Source: a virus. Taken from it: a stretch of 64,000 nucleotides of DNA. Below are positions 6,748 to 54,365 of this stretch, piece after piece. Numbering within the stretch: the first letter of the stretch is position 1; every line of letters starts with the position of its first letter. Position numbers and translations under genes: made by a program. Below the pieces are notes generated by a model. The model was given only the letters and a program-made list of their open reading frames with translations. It ran no database searches and was not told where the DNA came from. The stretch covers positions 1 to 64,000 of the IMG/VR virus record IMGVR_UViG_3300047678_000169. One strand, given 5' to 3'.

Positions 6748-7065
6748 TTAATCTCCGTGCTCGTTTCTACCCTTAAATGATTTGTCAGCTTCAAAAATAT
6801 TACAACGAACTGGCTGAGAATCTTTACGAATAACTCCAACGTTAAAATACTGCTCCATCTGTTCATAAAAGGCTCTACCAGCATTGTCATCTTCACCGAA
6901 GCCAAGTTCGCTACAAGAAAACATATAGTCTTTTCTTGATTGACCGAATTTTCTCTTACACATTTCTTCAAGGTGTTTTACAACACCGCTGGTCGAATTG
7001 AATGTTATGACTGGAGTTTTTCCACCTTTGGTGCTTGTTGAATCGATGATGTAATATGTTGACAT
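6748..7065 (-). CDS. hypothetical protein
   Basis: ORF in operon. Confidence 0.6.
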   Translation of the reverse strand: MSTYYIIDSTSTKGGKTPVITFNSTSGVVKHLEEMCKRKFGQSRKDYMFSCSELGFGEDDNAGRAFYEQMEQYFNVGVIRKDSQPVRCNIFEADKSFKGRNEHGD

Positions 7066-7066
7066 G

Positions 7067-7231
7067 TTAATTTCCTGTTAGTCTGAGGTCGCCTTGGATG
7101 GTGACTATTTTCATGGGGTCTTGTTTGAGCCAAATGTTATTATCGGAATCAACATAAATTAAGTCCAAATCAACTGCTTGTTGAATTGTAATGGGTTGGT
7201 CGTTATAATAAATCTGTCCACTGTATGCCAT
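7067..7231 (-). CDS. small hypothetical protein (54 aa, MAYSGQIYYNDQPITIQQ...)
   Basis: Not in the track. Fills the gap exactly and is preceded by TACTTAT (7238-7244). Confidence 0.55.
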   Translation of the reverse strand: MAYSGQIYYNDQPITIQQAVDLDLIYVDSDNNIWLKQDPMKIVTIQGDLRLTGN

Positions 7232-7260
7232 GTTATGATAAGTATATATGAAACAAAGAA

Positions 7261-8265
7261 TCAGTCGTGATTACCGCCCGCAAATCCAGCCTTTCTACCA
7301 TCGTTTGTTGAAGTGGGCTTTTTATTCATTAGGCCGGAAAGTGTTTCCAGAGCATCTTCAAACTTGTTTCCAAGACACTTGACACTGATAACTAACTCTG
7401 CCATTGCAGCGAAGCTGAATCCTTCTGTTTTTTCAACCCACACATCAATTTCTTTATCATCGAGTCCGAGTTTGTTCGTATAATACATCTTTCTTACAGC
7501 GACGTTTGGCATTCCAATTTTCAACACTCTGTCGAATCGTCTTGGGCGCCCGACCAATCTCTTATCCAATTTTTCAGGATAGTTTGTGGTTGCGATGTTC
7601 AATACTTTATCAATTTGAGATTCACCATCCAAAATTGATAGGATTGTATCTTCTCCAAAGCTGTCAATGATTGAATCTAAATCTTCAAATATACAAACAA
7701 CGTTTCTGTTTGGTTCAACTTCTCTAAAAGCAGCCAATGCTAGTGCCAACACCGATGGATTGTCGCAGATGAAAACAATTCCGGTCTTATCAATAATCTT
7801 CTTGATGATTTGCTGAACCAATGATGTTTTTCCGCCGCCGGCCGGTCCGTAGAGCAAATATCCTCTACGATGAAGAAATCCATATTTCTTAAAATTGGCT
7901 GCTTTGTTCCAAAACCCTTCAATTTCAGTCAAAATGGTGTTGCTAAGTGAATCTGGAAATTCTAGTAGGTCGTCAACATTGATTTCTGTTTTGTAGATGA
8001 TGATTTCATTGTTCTTGACCTTGATTCTGAATACACCAGATTCAAGTGTCTTTCGTGTCTTCTGAATTGACACAAATTCATTCGGACCACAATACGCCCA
8101 TTGTGACTTTCTTACCTTGGCAAATAAATCGCCACCTTCATCGTCTGATGAAGTTCCACCAAGAATTTCATGAATGTTTCTCGGGGCTCTTTGTCTCGCC
8201 GGAGTTATTTTTAGGTCGGCTGAGTCTGTTCCACTACCAAATTCTTCCAATGGGCTGTTAGTCAT
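7261..8265 (-). CDS. AAA+ ATPase (BCS1/FtsH-like clade)
   Basis: RRGYLLYGPAGGGKT, FEDLD, ATTNYPEKLD, RPRRFD. Confidence 0.9.
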   Translation of the reverse strand: MTNSPLEEFGSGTDSADLKITPARQRAPRNIHEILGGTSSDDEGGDLFAKVRKSQWAYCGPNEFVSIQKTRKTLESGVFRIKVKNNEIIIYKTEINVDDLLEFPDSLSNTILTEIEGFWNKAANFKKYGFLHRRGYLLYGPAGGGKTSLVQQIIKKIIDKTGIVFICDNPSVLALALAAFREVEPNRNVVCIFEDLDSIIDSFGEDTILSILDGESQIDKVLNIATTNYPEKLDKRLVGRPRRFDRVLKIGMPNVAVRKMYYTNKLGLDDKEIDVWVEKTEGFSFAAMAELVISVKCLGNKFEDALETLSGLMNKKPTSTNDGRKAGFAGGNHD

Positions 8266-8266
8266 A

Positions 8267-8803
8267 TTAGCGATATTCTGGTTTTAGTAATCTCCACTTA
8301 TCTCCGTCGATTGGTTTTTCTCCCGAATCGATTTTTTTCAACATAGAAACGATTTCGTCAACGCTGTTGTAAATATACTTGTGAGGAAACATAGCTAAGA
8401 GCCAAAGAGGACACAGTTTCTTCCCACCTTCGATGGATATGAAAACTGGCTTTTTCATGCGACATGATGTTACCAGCTCTTCTGCGCTTCCCCAAGAAGC
8501 AACGGTTGGCTTGATGTGAGCCACCAAGAAATCTGAAATGTCGCATAATCTCAAATCATAATTGCGGACAGGCTTCATTCTCTCCGTAACTTCATCATAT
8601 TTTTCAGCCGCCATTAGGTCAGCCAATTTGGCTCGTGTTCCTTCATCCTCTGGCGTATCGTCCATGAACGGCTTTTTATATGGGTCAAATGTAATGACTC
8701 CAAGCTTGTCCATTTCTTTTGTAAAGTCTTCTCTCCAACCTCTTCCATTGGCATATTGCATGTGCCCAATGGTATAAACTTTTGTTTTATGTAATATTCC
8801 CAT
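8267..8803 (-). CDS. nucleoside 2-deoxyribosyltransferase-like protein
   Basis: VYTIGHM..WRE, FDPY, DLRLCDISDFLVA, SWGSAEE pattern. Confidence 0.65.
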   Translation of the reverse strand: MGILHKTKVYTIGHMQYANGRGWREDFTKEMDKLGVITFDPYKKPFMDDTPEDEGTRAKLADLMAAEKYDEVTERMKPVRNYDLRLCDISDFLVAHIKPTVASWGSAEELVTSCRMKKPVFISIEGGKKLCPLWLLAMFPHKYIYNSVDEIVSMLKKIDSGEKPIDGDKWRLLKPEYR

Positions 8804-35523: not shown

Positions 35524-37140
35524 TTACATTCCTTCTTGTGGAATCTGCTGTTGAATTTGCTCGGCCTCATCTTCAATGTCAGCAATCATACATTCGGTGG
35601 TCAATAATAGACCAGCGATGGATGCAGCGTTTTGAAGAGCGGTGCGCGTGACCTTTGTTGGGTCAACAACTCCGGAAACAACCAAGTCTTGATAAACATC
35701 GGTTGCGACATTGTAACCGTAATTTCCCGTGTTCTTCAACACTTCACTTACTACAACGTCTCCACTCTTTCCTGCATTTGAACACAGCATCTTGATTGGG
35801 TGTTCGATGGCTCTACGAACAATTTGAGCTCCAATTTGTTCATCGCCTTCTAACTTGAGAGCGTCAATAACCGAAGCACATCTCAATAGAGCAACTCCTC
35901 CACCCGGAACAATTCCCTCTTCAACTGCGGCACGTGTTGCGTGCAAGGCATCTTCAACACGGTCTTTCTTTTCTTTCATTTCGGATTCGGTGGCTGCGCC
36001 CGTGTGGACAACTGCAACTCCGCCAGTTAGTTTGGCAAGGCGTTCTTGAAGCTTCTCACGCTCGAAGTCAGAAGTCGATTTCTCAATTTCATTCTTAATG
36101 AGCTTAATACGAACTTCAATGGCAGCTGGTTTGCCCGTTCCGCCGATGATGGTGGTGCTATCCTTTGTTACAATAATCTTCTTAGCCTGACCCAAATCAG
36201 CAAAGGTTAATTTGTCAAGATTGAGCCCAAGCTCAGAGGTAATCAATTTTGCTCCAGTGATGGTCGCAATGTCCTCGAGGGTAGCACGGCGTCTATCACC
36301 AAATCCAGGTGCCTTAACAGCACATGAAACGAAAGCTCCACGAACTCTGTTTACAACCATAAAGGCGAGAGCATCACCCTCAACATCTTCAGCTATAACA
36401 AGGAGCTTCTTTCCCATCTTAGCAATTTCTGTAAAGAATTTGGCCAATGGGGCTATGGTGGTGAGCTTCTTTTCGATAACCAGAACCAAAGCGTCATCAA
36501 GAACAGCTTGTTGGGTTTCTTGGTCTGCAAAATAAGCGGAAATGAATCCCTTATCGAACTGCATACCCTCAACGACCTCAAGAGTCGTATCCATTGAGCT
36601 AGCTTCTTCAACGGTGATTGTTCCATCCTTACCAACCTTATCCATGGCGTCGGCAATAATGTTACCAATTGAGGTATCCCAGTTGGCGGAGACGGTGGCG
36701 ACCTGGCGAATCTCTTCGCTGCTGCTTACCTTTTTAGAGATTTTGGCTAATTCTGCTACAGCAGCTACTACAGCCTTGTCGATACCACGCTTCAAATACA
36801 CCGGATTTGCGCCAGCGGCTACGGTCTTTAGACCTTCACGATAGATTGCGGATGCAAGAACCGTTGCGGTGGTTGTTCCGTCTCCGGCCAAATCGTTGGT
36901 CTTGGAAGCAACTTCTTTTACCATTTGAGCACCCATGTTCTCAAACTTATCTTTGAGTTGAATAGACTTAGCAACCGTAACTCCGTCTTTGGTAATCAAT
37001 GGAGAACCAAATCCACGTTCGATGGCGACATTGCGACCCTTGGGCCCCAATGTTACACTGACCGCATTTGATAGGGTTGTTACTCCAGCCAAGATTTTAT
37101 TTCTGGCCTCTGCACTAAATAGGATTTCTTTTGATTTCAT
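35524..37140 (-). CDS. groL: chaperonin GroEL
   Basis: [43 protein letters not shown]; no GGM tail. Confidence 0.97.
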
Positions 37141-41780: not shown

Positions 41781-42398
41781 TTATTTATTTAATGAGGACT
41801 CAATCTTTTCTTTATATTTAGTCGGAAACCCAATCATGACCTTGGTAAAGGTCTTTCCTTTGATTTCTCTCTTATAATGAAATTCATCAACAGGAATTAT
41901 AGTTTTTCCAGGCAAAAATTGTGGGACCTCGGACACAGGAACCTTCTTCCACCCCATTCTATTCGCCATTGCTTCGGCAGCACCGGACACTTCAGCGTAT
42001 GTTCTCTTCAATAACAAATCGTCTTTAATGATGCGTATTAAGTCAATAAGACCTTGTGTTGGTTTCGAACCTTCTCGACCAGACGATGCTCCCATGACTC
42101 TTTTCAAACCAAATTCAGTTCTTTGAACAATAGCAATGGCTACAACATCTTTACCTCTCCTTGACATTTTCCAAAACATGTCTGGGTCATTGGCTAATTT
42201 AATCAATTCATCACGCATGCCTTGTTCAGTTTCAATTCCCTTGTATCCGCCGGCATAACGGTAAGATTTGACCATTAATGGAAGCACTTGGTCAACAAAC
42301 TTGAGCTTCTCTTGAGTGGTTCTCGCGTTGAGAACATGCTCTTTCAAGACCTCTTGAACAGATTCTATAATAAGTTTTCTAATATCTGAGCGATTCAC
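41781..42398 (-). CDS. hypothetical protein, possible internal head protein
   Basis: N-terminal IRKLIIESVQEVLKE amphipathic leader; TATTTAT motif upstream. Confidence 0.55.
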   Translation of the reverse strand: MNRSDIRKLIIESVQEVLKEHVLNARTTQEKLKFVDQVLPLMVKSYRYAGGYKGIETEQGMRDELIKLANDPDMFWKMSRRGKDVVAIAIVQRTEFGLKRVMGASSGREGSKPTQGLIDLIRIIKDDLLLKRTYAEVSGAAEAMANRMGWKKVPVSEVPQFLPGKTIIPVDEFHYKREIKGKTFTKVMIGFPTKYKEKIESSLNK

Positions 42399-42422: not shown

Positions 42423-43520
42423 TTATCCTTCCTTTCCGTCGCAATATTTTTCACCCGTCACTGTATTTACCATGTCCTTGAAAGAACAATATTTGCAGTT
42501 CTTTTTGGCTTTTCCGGGATTCTTACCAAATGGAGACTCCTTGTTGTATTCTCCGTGGGCATCAAAACACTCATTGATAAAGTCTAAGAAAGACTCTTCA
42601 ACCATTTTCAAGCTCATTTTTCCATCGGGAGGAGCAACACGTTGAATTCTCTGTTGTGGGAATGCCAAATCTTCGTATAAGCGCCTCTTCAAGATAATGA
42701 ATTCAACTTCAATGTCACTCAAAGGTGTCTTATAGACTTGATTGTAGAATCTCTTGTATAGCAAAAGTTGGTCGAGCTTTGTTCGGTCAGCCTTTTGATA
42801 CTTGTTCCAACCAAACGTAGAAGTTTTGAAGTCCAAAATGCGAATCTTTCCGGTGGATTTCTCTCTCAATACAATGTCAAGAAATCCCTTGTAAATGATA
42901 GTTCCGCCGCGGATGGGAATGTTGAGAGGAAGTTCGATACCAACAATTTCGTAAATTTTAGATGGAAAATGTTTACTTCTCACGGAATGAGATACAAAGT
43001 AATCGATGATATTTTTACCATCAACTCTAAATTCTTCAATTTCAACATCAATGAATTCACTTGGGAGCTCTACGTGCTCTCTATTTTCAGAAAGAGCTTT
43101 CTTTTTCTCTTCCTCTCTTCCCTTAGTCTCTTTTTCTCGTATCGTCTTAATTTCTTTGTCATATTCTGTGTTGAACTGACCAACGCAATCAATAGCTTCA
43201 GCTTCGATTGCTCCTTTGGTGTAAAGGACATTTAAGAAATTTTGTAAAACCGTATGTATAGCCTTACCAAAGGCTGTGTTGATGGAGTCGTCCCAGGTTG
43301 AGAGCTTGTCCATATATGACAATTTCCATTGAAACGGACATTTTAGCCACATTGCATATTGACTAAAACTCACCGTTTTAGGCTTCTTCGCTGTTGGGTC
43401 TTTTTGTGGTGTGGTTGGAGGAACAACTGAAACGTCTATTGCCTTTAGAGCCACTTCATCACCAACAATAAAAAAATCTTCCATTTCTACAATTACAACA
43501 GATTTTTTTACCACTGTCAA
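42423..43520 (-). CDS. PD-(D/E)XK exonuclease (RecB/Cas4-like, probable Fe-S)
   Basis: SFSQ..KCP, FGKAIH, GFLD, DFKTS, QLLLY, CKYC..C. The track's TTG start coincides with a TTGACA -35 box, so the start is probably MEDFF. Confidence 0.85.
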   Translation of the reverse strand: MTVVKKSVVIVEMEDFFIVGDEVALKAIDVSVVPPTTPQKDPTAKKPKTVSFSQYAMWLKCPFQWKLSYMDKLSTWDDSINTAFGKAIHTVLQNFLNVLYTKGAIEAEAIDCVGQFNTEYDKEIKTIREKETKGREEEKKKALSENREHVELPSEFIDVEIEEFRVDGKNIIDYFVSHSVRSKHFPSKIYEIVGIELPLNIPIRGGTIIYKGFLDIVLREKSTGKIRILDFKTSTFGWNKYQKADRTKLDQLLLYKRFYNQVYKTPLSDIEVEFIILKRRLYEDLAFPQQRIQRVAPPDGKMSLKMVEESFLDFINECFDAHGEYNKESPFGKNPGKAKKNCKYCSFKDMVNTVTGEKYCDGKEG

Positions 43521-43567
43521 CAGATTTTGATTGGCGTTAACGCATTTTGGCCGATACTTATTCTAAT

Positions 43568-43939
43568 ATGCAAATCGAAGCAATCACTCTTATTATAGGA
43601 AGCCTCGCATCAATCCTTACTGCTCTGGTCAGCTATATCGCCGGAAAAAAGAAGGCAACAAGCACAGACTTTGATGTTCTAATCAAGGCCAACGAACAAT
43701 TTCGTTCTGAAATCAGAAATGAACTTGCCCAAGCTCGTCAAACAATCGAAGAATTGAGACAAGCCATGAAAGATAAAGACAAGGAAGTTTCGGATTTGCA
43801 GAACTCTGTTAACGATTTACAAACTGAAATCGTTGAAAAAGACAGAAGAATTAGTGACCTTAAAATTGATTTGATGAAAAAAGATATTAGGGTATCTGAG
43901 TTGGCAGCTAGACTCACGATGCTTGACAAGCAATCATAA
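43568..43939 (+). CDS. single-TM coiled-coil membrane protein
   Basis: MQIEAITLIIGSLASILTALVSYIAGKKK then about 85 aa of heptads; ATG follows TACTTAT (43555-43561). Confidence 0.7.
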   Translation: MQIEAITLIIGSLASILTALVSYIAGKKKATSTDFDVLIKANEQFRSEIRNELAQARQTIEELRQAMKDKDKEVSDLQNSVNDLQTEIVEKDRRISDLKIDLMKKDIRVSELAARLTMLDKQS

Positions 43940-44388
43940 TGAATGGGCTCCTACATTTTGGAGAAGACTTAAAGAAGTTTTATAGAGACAAAATAGCCTG
44001 TCATTGGCCGGCTAAGCCAGATTCATTGTCCACAGATAAGTCTATTCTCAGAGGACTGAAAAAGAGCGAAATTCCAGCCATCTTAGCTACACAGGTCAAA
44101 GATGAACTTCCGATTATTATATTTTCCAATGAAGCACATGAAAAATTGACCGGCTATTCAATGGAAGAATTGATTGGAAAGTCCACCAATATATTCTATG
44201 GAAAAAATACCGATAAACATTCTCTCAAAGACCTTATTGAGAATCTAAAAGAGAATGGATTCTGGACCGGCAAGTTAGTCTGTTATGATAAGCGTGGTAA
44301 AGAATGTTTGATTTCTTTTAATATCATAACCATCCTTGTAAATAACAAACGATACCACATAGCTTACAAGAAGAGGTTGACGAAATGA
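43939..44388 (+). CDS. stand-alone PAS domain protein
   Basis: IIFSNEAHEKLTGYSMEELIGK..WTGKLVCYDKRG is a PAS/PAC signature. Confidence 0.85.
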   Translation: MNGLLHFGEDLKKFYRDKIACHWPAKPDSLSTDKSILRGLKKSEIPAILATQVKDELPIIIFSNEAHEKLTGYSMEELIGKSTNIFYGKNTDKHSLKDLIENLKENGFWTGKLVCYDKRGKECLISFNIITILVNNKRYHIAYKKRLTK

Positions 44389-44759
44389 ACATATTGTATG
44401 TTGAAGATGATAGGTTAATATCTGAACTAGCCAAATATATTTTCGTTGAGCTAGACCACACGGTTATTTTTTGTCAAACTATCCAATCTGCCAAGAGCGT
44501 CATAGAAAACGAAGGCTCTAAAATTGATTTGATATTTTTGGATTTGTTATTGCCAGACGGAAGCGGCATAGATATTTTAGATTTTATGGAATCCTCTCAT
44601 TCAGAGATTCCGGTTATTGTTATTTCTGGTAAGATTGATAGTTATAGGGAAAGATTAAATGAACATCTCAGTAAAAAGACTGTGATGGGTGTTTATTCAA
44701 AACCTCCGTGTTATGATTCCATAGTATCGGACATGAACACATTATTTTGCAAGAAATGA
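44385..44759 (+). CDS. single-domain response regulator (receiver)
   Basis: ILYVEDD, DLIFLDLLLPDGSG, IPVIVISG, KP; phosphoacceptor residues intact. Confidence 0.92.
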   Translation: MNILYVEDDRLISELAKYIFVELDHTVIFCQTIQSAKSVIENEGSKIDLIFLDLLLPDGSGIDILDFMESSHSEIPVIVISGKIDSYRERLNEHLSKKTVMGVYSKPPCYDSIVSDMNTLFCKK

Positions 44760-45217
44760 ATAAACCAACTCCCTTCTCACATCTTCTACAGAAAAAAGGC
44801 ATTCTAAAAAATTTTTCTATTGCGAAAACCGTTCCTCACAAGGAAATAGAAGCTCTCAAGGAAAAAGTCAGAGCATCAACCAAATCTGAGGAAGAATATA
44901 ACAAGGTATTTGAGCAAGAAATGATTCGTGTTGGGAACATGCACGATGTATCCAATCCGATTCCTGGCATCATCTATGATGAGCAGAAGAAGGGGCGCTC
45001 CGCTAAACTTCTGAAACACATGCTTGAAGTTTCTAAGAAACTAAAGGCTCAAAACTTTACCAAAGCTGAGATGTGCTTCTTTATAGTATCATTGATAAGT
45101 GCTCTGGGACTCACCAAAGAAGATTTCTCTGGAACGGATTTTACTGACTTTGGCTTGAAGCCAAGGAAAAAGCCTCCAGAAGACGAACAATACGACGATG
45201 GATATAGTAAGGATTAA
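44747..45217 (+). CDS. hypothetical protein
   Basis: Last ORF of the plus-strand cassette. Confidence 0.6.
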   Translation: MQEMNKPTPFSHLLQKKGILKNFSIAKTVPHKEIEALKEKVRASTKSEEEYNKVFEQEMIRVGNMHDVSNPIPGIIYDEQKKGRSAKLLKHMLEVSKKLKAQNFTKAEMCFFIVSLISALGLTKEDFSGTDFTDFGLKPRKKPPEDEQYDDGYSKD

Positions 45218-45888
45218 GCAAGCTTCATCTCTTCGATGAACTTGCTTACGTGTCTGTTCAATTCGGTATCATTTACCAAATCATCAGACTTAACATGTTC
45301 CCACTCTACTCTATAAGAAGCTAGAGCCTTTATTTTTGGGTCGTTGAGAGCTTCATGGTCATTTGCTGGTTGAACAAACTTAAATTCGTTCGCTCCAACA
45401 ACATCAACGTCTCCTCGTGAGGTTCTCTGTGTATATGGAAATGGAACAATCTCATAGCGACTGACATGAACCACTACACCGTGCCAGTCTTCCGTTACCC
45501 AATGAATTTCATCCTTGGGATAGTGAGCATAACGAATGTCGGTGATGATGGCGTAATCAGCATCAATCTTTTCTAAATTTGATTGGACAATGTTAATCCA
45601 ATATTTTCCACCGGTTCTTTTTCGTTGAGCATCACCATACCAAACTAAGAACGGACGAATCAAGTTCTTTTCTTCGGTAATTTGGGTAAAGGCGGAGAAT
45701 CCAAAATTCTTCTTACAGAATTCATCACAATCAGCCTTCAAAGCGTCTGCCAATGCAAACTTGATAACCGACTTATTTTTTGCAATAAGCTGGTTCATTA
45801 AAATGAGAGCGAAGGTGTCTTTTCCGCTACGGGCAACTCCCGCTATTCCTATAATAAGTGGTTTATGTGATGCCTGCATATTTTTCAA
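45214..45888 (-). CDS. deoxynucleoside monophosphate kinase
   Basis: IIGIAGVARSGKDT, ALADALK, IITDIRY..E. Confidence 0.82.
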   Translation of the reverse strand: MKNMQASHKPLIIGIAGVARSGKDTFALILMNQLIAKNKSVIKFALADALKADCDEFCKKNFGFSAFTQITEEKNLIRPFLVWYGDAQRKRTGGKYWINIVQSNLEKIDADYAIITDIRYAHYPKDEIHWVTEDWHGVVVHVSRYEIVPFPYTQRTSRGDVDVVGANEFKFVQPANDHEALNDPKIKALASYRVEWEHVKSDDLVNDTELNRHVSKFIEEMKLA

Positions 45889-46339
45889 ATTTATCTTTGT
45901 ATTTTTCTACAAATCGGATTTCTCCGTTTAGATATTTATCCTTTAGGATAGATGAGTTTGGCTCAATGTCAATCAGTTTATACTCTAAACCATTTTCTAT
46001 ACAGAATTTTTCGCCCACTTCTTTTTTTAGTTTTACCAACAGAGTTTCCCATAACTTCTTGGGCTTTACTTCTATCAACGAATTCCCAACTAAGAAATCG
46101 GGCTGATATGTTCTGTCTGTTCCATCATAACTTTTGTATGGTATTCTATACTTTTGGGCGCTTTCGCATGATAGACCTTTTCCCTCTACTTCTGTTATAA
46201 AGTATTGCAATTCTCTAAGGCTTCTAAAGTGATGACCTTTATACCAATTGGCCCACCCGTTGCCAGAACCATTTGGAGAAGGTTTTCCATACATCGGATT
46301 TTTCTTTCCCACTCTTCCAAAATGACTTCGCCAAATCAA
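45863..46339 (-). mobile_element. TnsA-like homing endonuclease (NUMOD3 plus PD-(D/E)XK), 5' end possibly damaged
   Basis: GKKNPMYGK, FRSLRE, YQPDF, IEVKP; no good ATG start. Confidence 0.7.
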
Positions 46340-46561: not shown

Positions 46562-47035
46562 CTATTCATGCCCAATCAACTTTTCCATTTCTTTTTCGGT
46601 ATAACCAAACAAAGAAACAATTTGCTTTATCTGTTCTTCGGTCATTAAAGAAAGATACTCTGTTACGTTTCTTTCACTCTCCATGAAGTATCCTTTCATT
46701 AGTCCAATCAATTCTTTAGTATGCTCCTTTGACTTGGAATTCTTAATATAAGGATAGTAGGCTCGACCTTTGGGAACAATGGCGATGCAGCACTGATAAA
46801 ATAGTTCTGGGTCAAGAGTCTGATATTTTTGAATCTCATTGACCAATTCTATTAGATTTGGCTGCATACTCAAGAATCGACAAATCATATAATTACTCCA
46901 ACTCTTTCTGTCAGCATCAGTCAAGTTTTTGAAATAAGCAGGGTCTTGCTTTTCTCTAATGTGATTGATGTGGTCAAACAAGCCCTTGGCTTTGACTCCA
47001 ACCGTTCCGGTGACTGTAGATTTCTTTTTAGGCAT
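46562..47035 (-). CDS. clamp loader small subunit (T4 gp62-like)
   Basis: LFDHIN, W.NYMI.RFLSM, Y.PYIK pattern. Confidence 0.7.
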   Translation of the reverse strand: MPKKKSTVTGTVGVKAKGLFDHINHIREKQDPAYFKNLTDADRKSWSNYMICRFLSMQPNLIELVNEIQKYQTLDPELFYQCCIAIVPKGRAYYPYIKNSKSKEHTKELIGLMKGYFMESERNVTEYLSLMTEEQIKQIVSLFGYTEKEMEKLIGHE

Positions 47036-47825
47036 TTAATTTTCTCTTTTTACATACCAATCCAATATAACCATCATTTCTGCCGTTTGTCGATTCAATT
47101 AGATATTTTTCCTGAACAATTCCAATTATTTCTTCGTAGGTCGGTATTTCGATAAATTGTCCGTATAGAGTCATATACCTTCTTTCAATCGGCAGTTTAA
47201 CATCAGTTTGTATATTGAACATCAACATTCCTTCTTCTGAAAGAAGGGTGTAAGCATCATCGAAAAACTTCAATCGTTGTTTGGGAGATAGATGTTGAAG
47301 AACATTGGAGCTAAATACTATGTTGAACTTGCCAGCATTCTCTGAAACATATTCGGGAGGAATGTGTCCCTCAGAGGTGCATTTTTTAACATCTGGTGTT
47401 TTTGGAACAACGTCAAATCCTACATAATTGAACATAGTGGTTGCTTCAACATAATTTCGAAGAGAACCATAGCCAGGCCCAAGCTCCAACAGCGATAGAT
47501 TGTAGTGTCGGAACTCGTCTATCCAATTTATAAGACCCACACTACGAGCAATTCTCAAATTCATACGATTTCCACTCATATGATTGTAAGCAACTGTAGT
47601 TCCGTTATCGACGGCATTTGCTACACAATCGGTGCTAAACAAATCCTCACACACTTTCCAAAAATCTTCCGAATTGATTACGTCTGGATGAAGAAGCTTC
47701 AAATCCTCTTCTGTTGGAATCCATGTTTTGGCTCTCCAAGCAGCAAGCCAGTCCTTATAAACTTCCAATGAGGTAATTTTGAAGTGTTCGGTGATTATCT
47801 TTTTTATTTCGTCGTAGGTTTTCAT
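47028..47825 (-). CDS. class I SAM-dependent methyltransferase
   Basis: LLELGPGYG, GFDVV, SSNVLQHL. Confidence 0.8.
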   Translation of the reverse strand: MKTYDEIKKIITEHFKITSLEVYKDWLAAWRAKTWIPTEEDLKLLHPDVINSEDFWKVCEDLFSTDCVANAVDNGTTVAYNHMSGNRMNLRIARSVGLINWIDEFRHYNLSLLELGPGYGSLRNYVEATTMFNYVGFDVVPKTPDVKKCTSEGHIPPEYVSENAGKFNIVFSSNVLQHLSPKQRLKFFDDAYTLLSEEGMLMFNIQTDVKLPIERRYMTLYGQFIEIPTYEEIIGIVQEKYLIESTNGRNDGYIGLVCKKRKLNA

Positions 47826-53960: not shown

Positions 53961-54365
53961 TGGTGGACCTGCGGGGAGTTGAACCCCGGTGTTTCATAAA
54001 TTGCTCATCAGACATATACAAGCGTTAACACGGTGGATATGATTGTGGTTAGTAGTGTGCTCCACAAAAATTAGAGTCAGTAGTTTCTTCGTTGTTACAG
54101 TCTCACTTTCTCACAACGAACATATCAGCAGAGGTTGACGTATTGACCCACTTATCTGCGTGGTGGAATACGGACTGCTCAGTTTATTAAGCAGCGACAG
54201 CCATAGCGGCTCCAACGTTCTTCGCCTTGCGGAGAAGTGTTAGAACATTTAGCTTAGCAAGATTTCTCTTAGCATTTAGTTTTTGTAATCAGGATTATGC
54301 AGGATGTTTACCACCTGCGCTTGCGTTCCGAGCTCAACCCATAAAGTCGAATCCTGGACAGGCCC
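53961..54365 (-). ncRNA. ssrA: tmRNA
   Basis: 5' GGGCCTG..GGATTCGAC pairs with 3' CAGGTCC-ACCA (G3:U70); T-arm GGGGTTCAACTCCCC; tag ORF 54273-54187 AKRNLAKLNVLTLLRKAKNVGAAMAVAA followed by TAA TAA. Confidence 0.95.

Follow-up and report, generated by a model that had tools for sequence, protein, structure and literature searches.

A membrane coiled-coil, PAS and receiver gene cassette in the replication module of a phage

INTRODUCTION

What use could a phage make of a response-regulator receiver that comes with neither an adjacent kinase nor an output domain? The question is raised by a locus in the IMG/VR virus record IMGVR_UViG_3300047678_000169, an 80,238-bp sequence with CheckV completeness of 29%; its first 64 kb (64,000 nt) are the stretch analysed here and are called the window below. 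Nearly all genes of the record were called as open reading frames (ORFs) on the minus strand, and a block of four plus-strand genes is set in a minus-strand replication module. The block codes for a membrane protein with a transmembrane (TM) helix and a coiled coil (TMCC), a PAS protein (PAS), a receiver (REC) and a fourth protein, P4 (Table 1). An initial annotation, made from the sequence alone, had read these genes as a signalling cassette without kinase, plugged into host phosphorelays or coupled to a lysis protein.

To our knowledge, the use of bacterial two-component chemistry by phages is almost unstudied, and the CheY-like genes of cultured phages have merely been listed as auxiliary. 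The explanation that we find best overall is that TMCC and REC, in some phages together with PAS, form an inserted module in which REC would read a phosphate signal coming from an outside donor and would act via TMCC. We hold it tentatively, with somewhat less than even confidence.

RESULTS AND DISCUSSION

A cassette inserted next to a core gene

All three junctions of the block (TMCC/PAS, PAS/REC and REC/P4) are stop/start overlaps of 1 or 4 nt; the ORFs bear out the coordinates and overlaps initially given for the four genes at 43568-45217. The claim that no other multi-gene plus-strand block exists in the window holds for the confidently called genes, the other plus-strand ORFs being single; it is less secure at 62.7-64.1 kb, where there are unverified short ORFs. 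We read the four genes as one transcription unit in which they are translationally coupled.

A scan of viral contigs with an alignment of P4 yielded 46 related loci (L002-L047), and in 46 of 46 P4 stands in the same arrangement with the genes for a deoxynucleoside monophosphate (dNMP) kinase and a clamp loader. The exonuclease gene that precedes the block is present in 41 of them, which make the denominator for the gap counts. In 40 of the 41 loci no more than 80 bp separate exonuclease and P4; the corresponding distances in L038 and in the window are 920 bp and about 1.2 kb. L038 is also the only one of the 41 with extra genes, in the order TMCC-REC-P4 and with no PAS gene in the cassette. 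A second scan of viral contigs, with an alignment of the TMCC family, produced L229, L230 and L231, contigs from three samples that are >99.9% identical and represent one phage (L229 below). They carry TMCC-PAS-REC-P4 with order, overlaps and flanking genes identical to those of the window, at protein identities of 62% (TMCC), 36.5% (PAS), 47.5% (REC), 55% (P4), 70% (exonuclease) and 71% (dNMP kinase).

In 40 of the 41 loci P4 has the space between exonuclease and dNMP kinase to itself, which identifies it as a core gene of this clade of uncultured large phages and not a member of the cassette: it is normally a lone opposite-strand gene, here apparently co-transcribed with the cassette while lying outside it. 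The initial annotation had counted it as the fourth member, which is contradicted by these 40 loci, where P4 is found without the other three genes. Co-conservation of the cassette genes was seen in part: TMCC and REC go together in three lineages that have diverged from one another, two of which also have PAS, and P4 is conserved independently of the cassette.

In a tree built from four concatenated proteins (1055 columns), with 27 other non-identical taxa that are all of the short-gap type, the window pairs with L229 (support 1.0), L038 is sister to this pair (0.99) and the cassette bearers are monophyletic. The simplest history is a single insertion in the ancestor of this sub-clade; PAS would then have been acquired on the branch of the window and L229, or else lost from L038.

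The motif noticed initially, TACTTAT at 6 nt ahead of the first ATG of the block, is confirmed by the sequence. We found TATACTTAT 6-7 nt before the TMCC start in the window and in L229, and the variant TATATTTAT ahead of TMCC in L038. In the relatives with a spacer whose sequence was inspected, TATATTTAT stands 8-30 nt before P4. Whichever gene opens the plus-strand block is thus preceded by the motif: TMCC in all three lineages, P4 in the relatives; no copy is left directly before P4 in the window and L229. On this evidence TMCC-PAS-REC is an accessory insertion that separates P4 from its conserved promoter-like motif, and a single transcript would be expected to cover both the module and P4. 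Of 75 gene starts in the 80-kb record, 8 have TA[TC]TTAT beginning 7-16 nt upstream, where 0.19 would be expected; the ORF set is crude and the expectation carries no correction for AT-rich spacers. A scan of the region for sigma-70 promoters and terminators gave background level. A further copy of TATATTTAT sits 11 nt before the start of a minus-strand ORF of 205 aa that matches no PHROG and is missing from the related loci.

It could be argued that the cassette is a dead remnant of a membrane hybrid kinase (TM helix, coiled coil, PAS, kinase core and receiver, in this order) that lost its core and has no function. The order of the genes is that of the hybrid-kinase domains minus the core, and PAS and REC each weakly match phrog_5982, a family of hybrid histidine kinases. 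Still, the cassette ORFs are intact, with stop/start overlaps, in three lineages at 32-62% identity (core genes, 58-71%); the catalytic residues of the receiver are invariant, and no spacer could hold the remains of a pseudogene. Besides, L038 has TMCC and REC without PAS, and we found no bacterial homologue of TMCC in 201 Verrucomicrobiota genomes. The persistence of intact ORFs and of invariant catalytic residues at such divergence argues for a cassette under purifying selection rather than a decaying kinase fragment; a dead remnant is in our opinion extremely improbable.

Table 1. Coordinates of the features discussed (positions of the 80,238-bp record, of which the window is the first 64 kb, unless another contig is named)
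Feature	Contig	Position	Strand	Evidence or remark
Promoter-like motif TACTTAT (ATACTTATT)	window	43555-43561	+	6 nt before ATG 43568
TMCC, 123 aa	window	43568-43939	+	ORF
PAS protein, 149 aa	window	43939-44388	+	ORF, PAS_9
REC, 124 aa	window	44385-44759	+	ORF, Response_reg
P4, 153 aa, ATG start	window	44756-45217	+	ORF
Left flank, PD-(D/E)XK exonuclease, divergent	window	42423-43520	-	phrog_69, 1e-23
Right flank, dNMP kinase, convergent	window	45214-45888	-	phrog_139, 1.3e-20; 4-nt overlap with P4 stop
Endonuclease-like ORF, 158 aa	window	45863-46339	-	phrog_15427, 1.5e-10
205-aa ORF	window	41781-42398	-	
265-aa ORF	window	47028-47825	-	
Counterpart of 265-aa ORF	L038	7500-8279		52% identity
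GroEL	window	35524-37140	-	
tmRNA gene	window	53961-54365	-	ARAGORN
Hybrid kinase ORF, 941 aa	L054/L056/L058	2523-5348		
Hybrid kinase ORF	L051/L053	1737-5354		
Hybrid kinase ORF	L057	3279-5348		

A receiver with intact phosphorylation residues

REC is an output-less single-domain response regulator. It matches Response_reg of Pfam (PF00072) at 3.7e-12, with 46.8 bits against a cut-off of 30.2 (its orthologues reach 49.8, 39.5 and 53.5 bits), and phrog_731 at 7.8e-15. Its orthologues are those of L229 (47.5% identical), P0002, encoded on a 9.7-kb contig (52%), and that of L038 (32%). Residues E7, D8, D9, D53, S81 and K106 are invariant across the four sequences, so that the intact DD/D/S/K set ascribed to the receiver by the initial annotation (D8/D9, D53, S81 and K106) stands. 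The AlphaFold model of REC (pLDDT 85, pTM 0.82) has the canonical (beta-alpha)5 fold with the key residues on strands beta1, beta3, beta4 and beta5; with Foldseek, it has TM scores of 0.75-0.80 to the receivers of KdpE, PmrA, QseB and DivK.

Searches for further relatives gave little. Among the matches listed, a scan of metagenome contigs with the REC alignment returned generic regulators only, at no more than 38% identity; REC and PAS, each used alone to scan viral contigs, found nothing, and blastn and tblastn comparisons of the region, P4, TMCC and REC with GenBank phages returned nothing useful.

We also considered cREC (PF20274), the cyclic-phosphate-processing receiver of jumbo phages, for which linkage to genes of NAD+/ADP-ribose processing is one criterion besides the profile score (PMC7824862). 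The assignment was rejected: REC reaches 19.8 bits against a cut-off of 27, far under its Response_reg score, and its neighbours are TMCC, PAS and P4, without NAD+ enzymes.

The membrane coiled-coil protein

TMCC is a bitopic protein, judging from hydropathy and flanking charges: a single hydrophobic helix (residues 3-21) has no basic residue before it and a KKK cluster after it. The helix is followed by a stretch of 94 residues that is free of Pro and Gly and 39% charged, a predicted coiled coil of about 95 aa. With the basic cluster on the C-terminal side of the helix, the positive-inside rule predicts a cytoplasmic coiled coil.

A profile search with two TMCC sequences, those of the window and of L038, recovered 14 further clusters with 33-76% identity; one of the homologues (P0122) is encoded on a 266-kb contig. 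The motifs ANxxFRxEI and ISD are invariant, and the basic cluster behind the TM helix is kept throughout the 15-member family. The sole consistent family match is phrog_8369, which matches TMCC at 2.3e-10 and is matched by 7 of the 15 members; in Pfam, TMCC matched generic coiled-coil families alone, all below cut-off. Since TMCC has no histidine at all, a role as degenerate DHp-like phosphodonor was ruled out. Another candidate was UPF0242, a family of Chlamydiae that combines a TM coiled coil with PAS_12. Both halves scored below cut-off (22.7 bits against 33.5 and 21.3 against 22.6), and 2 of the 15 TMCC members matched the family at E<=1e-3, amid many generic coiled-coil families; we attributed these matches to coiled-coil and PAS noise and dropped the lead.

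The initial annotation saw in TMCC a protein similar to a holin or i-spanin. Such a reading would make the cassette a device for lysis timing, with a holin-, antiholin- or spanin-like TMCC gated by REC phosphorylation and the signal of PAS. There is a case that speaks for it: in Alteromonas phage V22 an analogous pair of genes is flanked by those of a papain-like amidase and an Rz-like spanin. On the other hand, the modules of the window, L229 and L038 all lie between the exonuclease gene and those of dNMP kinase and clamp loader; the predicted cytoplasmic location of the coiled coil is opposite to that of an i-spanin; no holin or spanin PHROG is among the matches listed for TMCC; and TMCC has no detectable homology to the V22 protein, ORF29 (hhalign probability 0.8%). 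The comparison with a holin or i-spanin is not supported by these data, and we regard lysis timing as very unlikely.

The PAS protein

PAS is a stand-alone protein made of an N-cap and a PAS_9 core (PF13426, 1.9e-11, 44.6 bits against a cut-off of 27). Its best sequence matches in PDB, with E from about 3e-6 to 1e-4, are MmoS, the NifL FAD-PAS, short LOV proteins, YtvA and phototropin LOV. The orthologue in L229, 36.5% identical, matches PAS_9 at 1.1e-9 (38.9 bits).

In phmmer alignments to DsLOV and YtvA the LOV motif GxNCRFLQG is replaced by GKSTNIFYG in the window and by GQSVEIFFG in L229. The absence of the LOV cysteine, remarked on from the start, is therefore real: in the window the adduct Cys has become Thr, the Arg of the motif Asn and its Gln Tyr. 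Further on, the positions of LOV Arg, Asn, Asn and Gln read Ile, Cys, Ile and Lys, and the L229 orthologue has no LOV residues there either. These are the positions that we take, from what is established about LOV domains, to contact the flavin. As the adduct Cys and all aligned flavin-contact positions are replaced, a LOV- or flavin-type mechanism is unlikely for this protein.

P4 and the flanking genes

The P4 family comprises 101 representative clusters at E<=1e-3; the proteins are of about 150 aa and have an acidic tail. P4 itself is mostly helical. Residues H9, F20, P70 and G71 are invariant, and L117, D123 and F124 nearly so. P4 has no match in Pfam or PHROG, and its model (pLDDT 84) has no fold match above noise in searches with Foldseek (PDB and BFVD), VIA wide and ESM Atlas. 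The tail-to-tail layout of P4 and dNMP kinase is common to all related loci.

The exonuclease of the window is 54-61% identical to those of the related loci. Translation of the gene probably begins at the ATG near 43484, because the relatives are 330-337 aa long and begin at the equivalent of M13. Beyond the dNMP kinase there follow a homing-endonuclease-like ORF and then a clamp-loader subunit. The endonuclease-like ORF (158 aa) between the two genes, for which none of the 46 related loci has a counterpart, is probably an inserted homing-endonuclease gene. A 265-aa ORF without PHROG match has a counterpart in L038, the sole sharer among the 46 loci first recovered, which are those that the comparison covered. 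A transfer-messenger RNA (tmRNA) gene is also present in the record; the tag peptide that it encodes ends in AMAVAA.

Host, and the source of the phosphate signal

The stretch of the window is contained in moss metagenome runs. The GroEL encoded by the phage is 67-71% identical to GroEL of metagenome-assembled genomes of Opitutaceae and other Verrucomicrobiota, which hints at a Verrucomicrobiota host. In the three Verrucomicrobiota genomes with the closest GroEL, PAS gave only weak matches, to long sensor proteins. Since we found no TMCC homologue in 201 Verrucomicrobiota genomes and no REC relative above 39% identity in 61 Opitutales genomes, the module is, as far as these comparisons go, not a recent capture from the sampled hosts.

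Searches for a kinase were negative in the sequences available. No HATPase_c was detected in any of the five cassette-bearing records (the 80-kb record of the window; L229, L230 and L231, of 62, 26 and 34 kb; and L038, of 22.7 kb), no HisKA in the 80,238-bp record, to which the HisKA search extended, and no Hpt (PF01627) in the records of the window, L229 and L038; nor does P4 match Hpt. A complete 297-kb relative that has no cassette contains no receiver and no kinase over the cut-off, just a 15-bit GHKL match in a 745-aa ORF. The description of the cassette as kinase-less thus holds for the whole 80,238-bp record, in which no HATPase_c, HisKA or Hpt was found, and is provisional for the genome, as the record is 29% complete.

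One could therefore suppose a split two-component system, in which the cognate phage kinase is encoded in the missing ~70% of the genome and the cassette is an unlinked receiver branch. The completeness of the cassette-bearing records is 10-29% (29% for the window, 20% for L229 and 10% for L038), so a phage kinase may lie elsewhere. Moreover, genes for complete hybrid histidine kinases occur on other large viral contigs of IMG/VR (31-243 kb), with PAS (and a GAF or SBP domain in some) followed by HisKA, HATPase_c and REC, and the similarity of our PAS and REC to phrog_5982, weak as it is, points in the same direction. Against such a system, no kinase was found within ~35-43 kb on either side of the cassette, nor in the 62-kb record of L229; the hybrid kinases that we examined carry their receiver on the kinase polypeptide itself; and the complete 297-kb relative does without a kinase over the cut-off. 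We consider a split system unlikely.

The incompleteness of the records and the hybrid kinases of other large viral contigs also weigh against a module that reads the signal of an outside donor, and so do several other observations. The alpha4-beta5-alpha5 region of REC, its C-terminal third, is divergent, and Pfam aligns residues 3-86 only. The aromatic residue of REC stands 2 and not 3 positions before K106. No close homologue of REC was found in the 61 Opitutales genomes, where the matches are 27-39% identical, and the host assignment, drawn from GroEL similarity only, is itself a hint.

How the module could act

Taking these points into account, we still favour a TMCC-REC(-PAS) module that is addressed from outside. 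Our best guess, in line with one part of the initial annotation, is that the module plugs into host phosphorelays. D53 of REC would receive its phosphate from a source that the module does not encode, a host histidine kinase or acetyl phosphate being the likeliest. As it is output-less, REC would act by protein contact, most plausibly with TMCC, with which it is always co-inherited, at the inner face of the membrane. PAS may serve as an optional second input or modulator. A complex prediction for two cytoplasmic chains of TMCC with REC gave a score of 0.00, which weighs neither for nor against binding.

A more specific picture is that of a 'listening post': a receiver phosphorylated by a membrane kinase of the host, held at the membrane by the coiled coil and tuned by a PAS that is cofactor-less or has a new ligand, the whole being one case of a widespread phage device. 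If it were true, the signalling state of the host would guide the infection programme of the phage, be it in the timing of late events, in superinfection exclusion or in lysis. We consider this picture doubtful, though possible.

It is also conceivable that the module serves as a decoy or sink, with a membrane-tethered REC that lies next to membrane kinases of the host, drains phosphate or sequesters the kinase and in this way silences a stress or defence response instead of passing information on. The intact phospho-acceptor chemistry, the lack of an output domain and the membrane-anchored partner would all suit such a role; sequestration of kinases by non-cognate regulators has been documented in bacteria (PMC10368727), and PIT4 is a phage precedent (PMC10714779). 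However, a decoy would need neither PAS nor a conserved coiled coil of 95 aa, and the strongly conserved motifs of the coiled coil suggest a dedicated interaction surface. We think a decoy quite unlikely.

What makes the locus valuable is that it is a natural experiment, with a dated insertion, three lineages that differ in the presence of PAS, and numerous sister phages whose site is empty. A receiver and a membrane partner that are inherited together and, as argued above, kept under selection define constructs for studying whether phages read phosphorylation signals of their hosts. The locus also indicates that the pairing of a receiver with a membrane protein is not tied to lysis cassettes, a caution against the ready reading of such pairs as lysis timers.

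Comparison with known systems

As in CheY, DivK, Spo0F and CpdR, in REC a receiver alone carries the full set of phospho-chemistry residues on the canonical fold, and DivK is among the best structural matches. These bacterial proteins act by protein contact or as phosphate sinks, and their kinases and targets are known. REC differs from them in being encoded by a phage, in its divergent alpha4-beta5-alpha5 face and in having a dedicated membrane coiled-coil protein as neighbour.

PAS resembles the short LOV proteins (DsLOV, 4KUK/6GAY; the YtvA LOV, 2PR5) and the FAD-PAS domains of NifL and MmoS in its build of N-cap and PAS core with no fused effector; unlike DsLOV and the YtvA LOV, the phage protein has the adduct Cys and the aligned flavin-contact positions replaced. 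With the phage hybrid kinases of the phrog_5982 type the cassette shares the combination of PAS_9 and Response_reg in large uncultured phages. Those kinases are single polypeptides with HisKA and HATPase_c, whereas here we see separate genes, no kinase core and a membrane coiled-coil partner.

Interference of a phage with host signalling has a precedent in PIT4 of Pseudomonas phage LSL4, which was shown experimentally to bind several two-component kinases of the host (PMC10714779); unlike the proteins of the cassette, PIT4 is neither a receiver nor a PAS protein.

The nearest parallel is found in the Alteromonas phages V22 (ORF29/ORF30) and A5 (gp10/gp11), where a hypothetical protein and a CheY-like protein were published as a class II auxiliary gene (PMC7289586, PMC10579305). 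In V22 (MN877442) ORF29 is a protein of 125 aa with an N-terminal hydrophobic helix, KKK and a helical tail, and ORF30 is an intact receiver; the gene order at 6960-8578 is papain-like amidase, ORF29, CheY-like ORF30 and Rz-like spanin ORF31. The V22 pair thus occupies the expected position of a holin. In both V22 and the window a protein of ~122-125 aa, with TM helix, basic cluster and helical tail, is encoded directly upstream of an output-less phrog_731 receiver, with no adjacent kinase. The differences are considerable: the membrane proteins lack detectable homology, as noted above, and ORF29 matches no PHROG; the receivers are 24% identical, a similarity at the level of the family only; a PAS gene stands here between membrane protein and receiver, unlike in V22 and A5; and the cassette is embedded among replication genes and joined to the core gene P4 instead of being placed between amidase and spanin. 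The architecture as such is therefore already known from V22 and A5; what is new here is the PAS gene and the position outside a lysis region.

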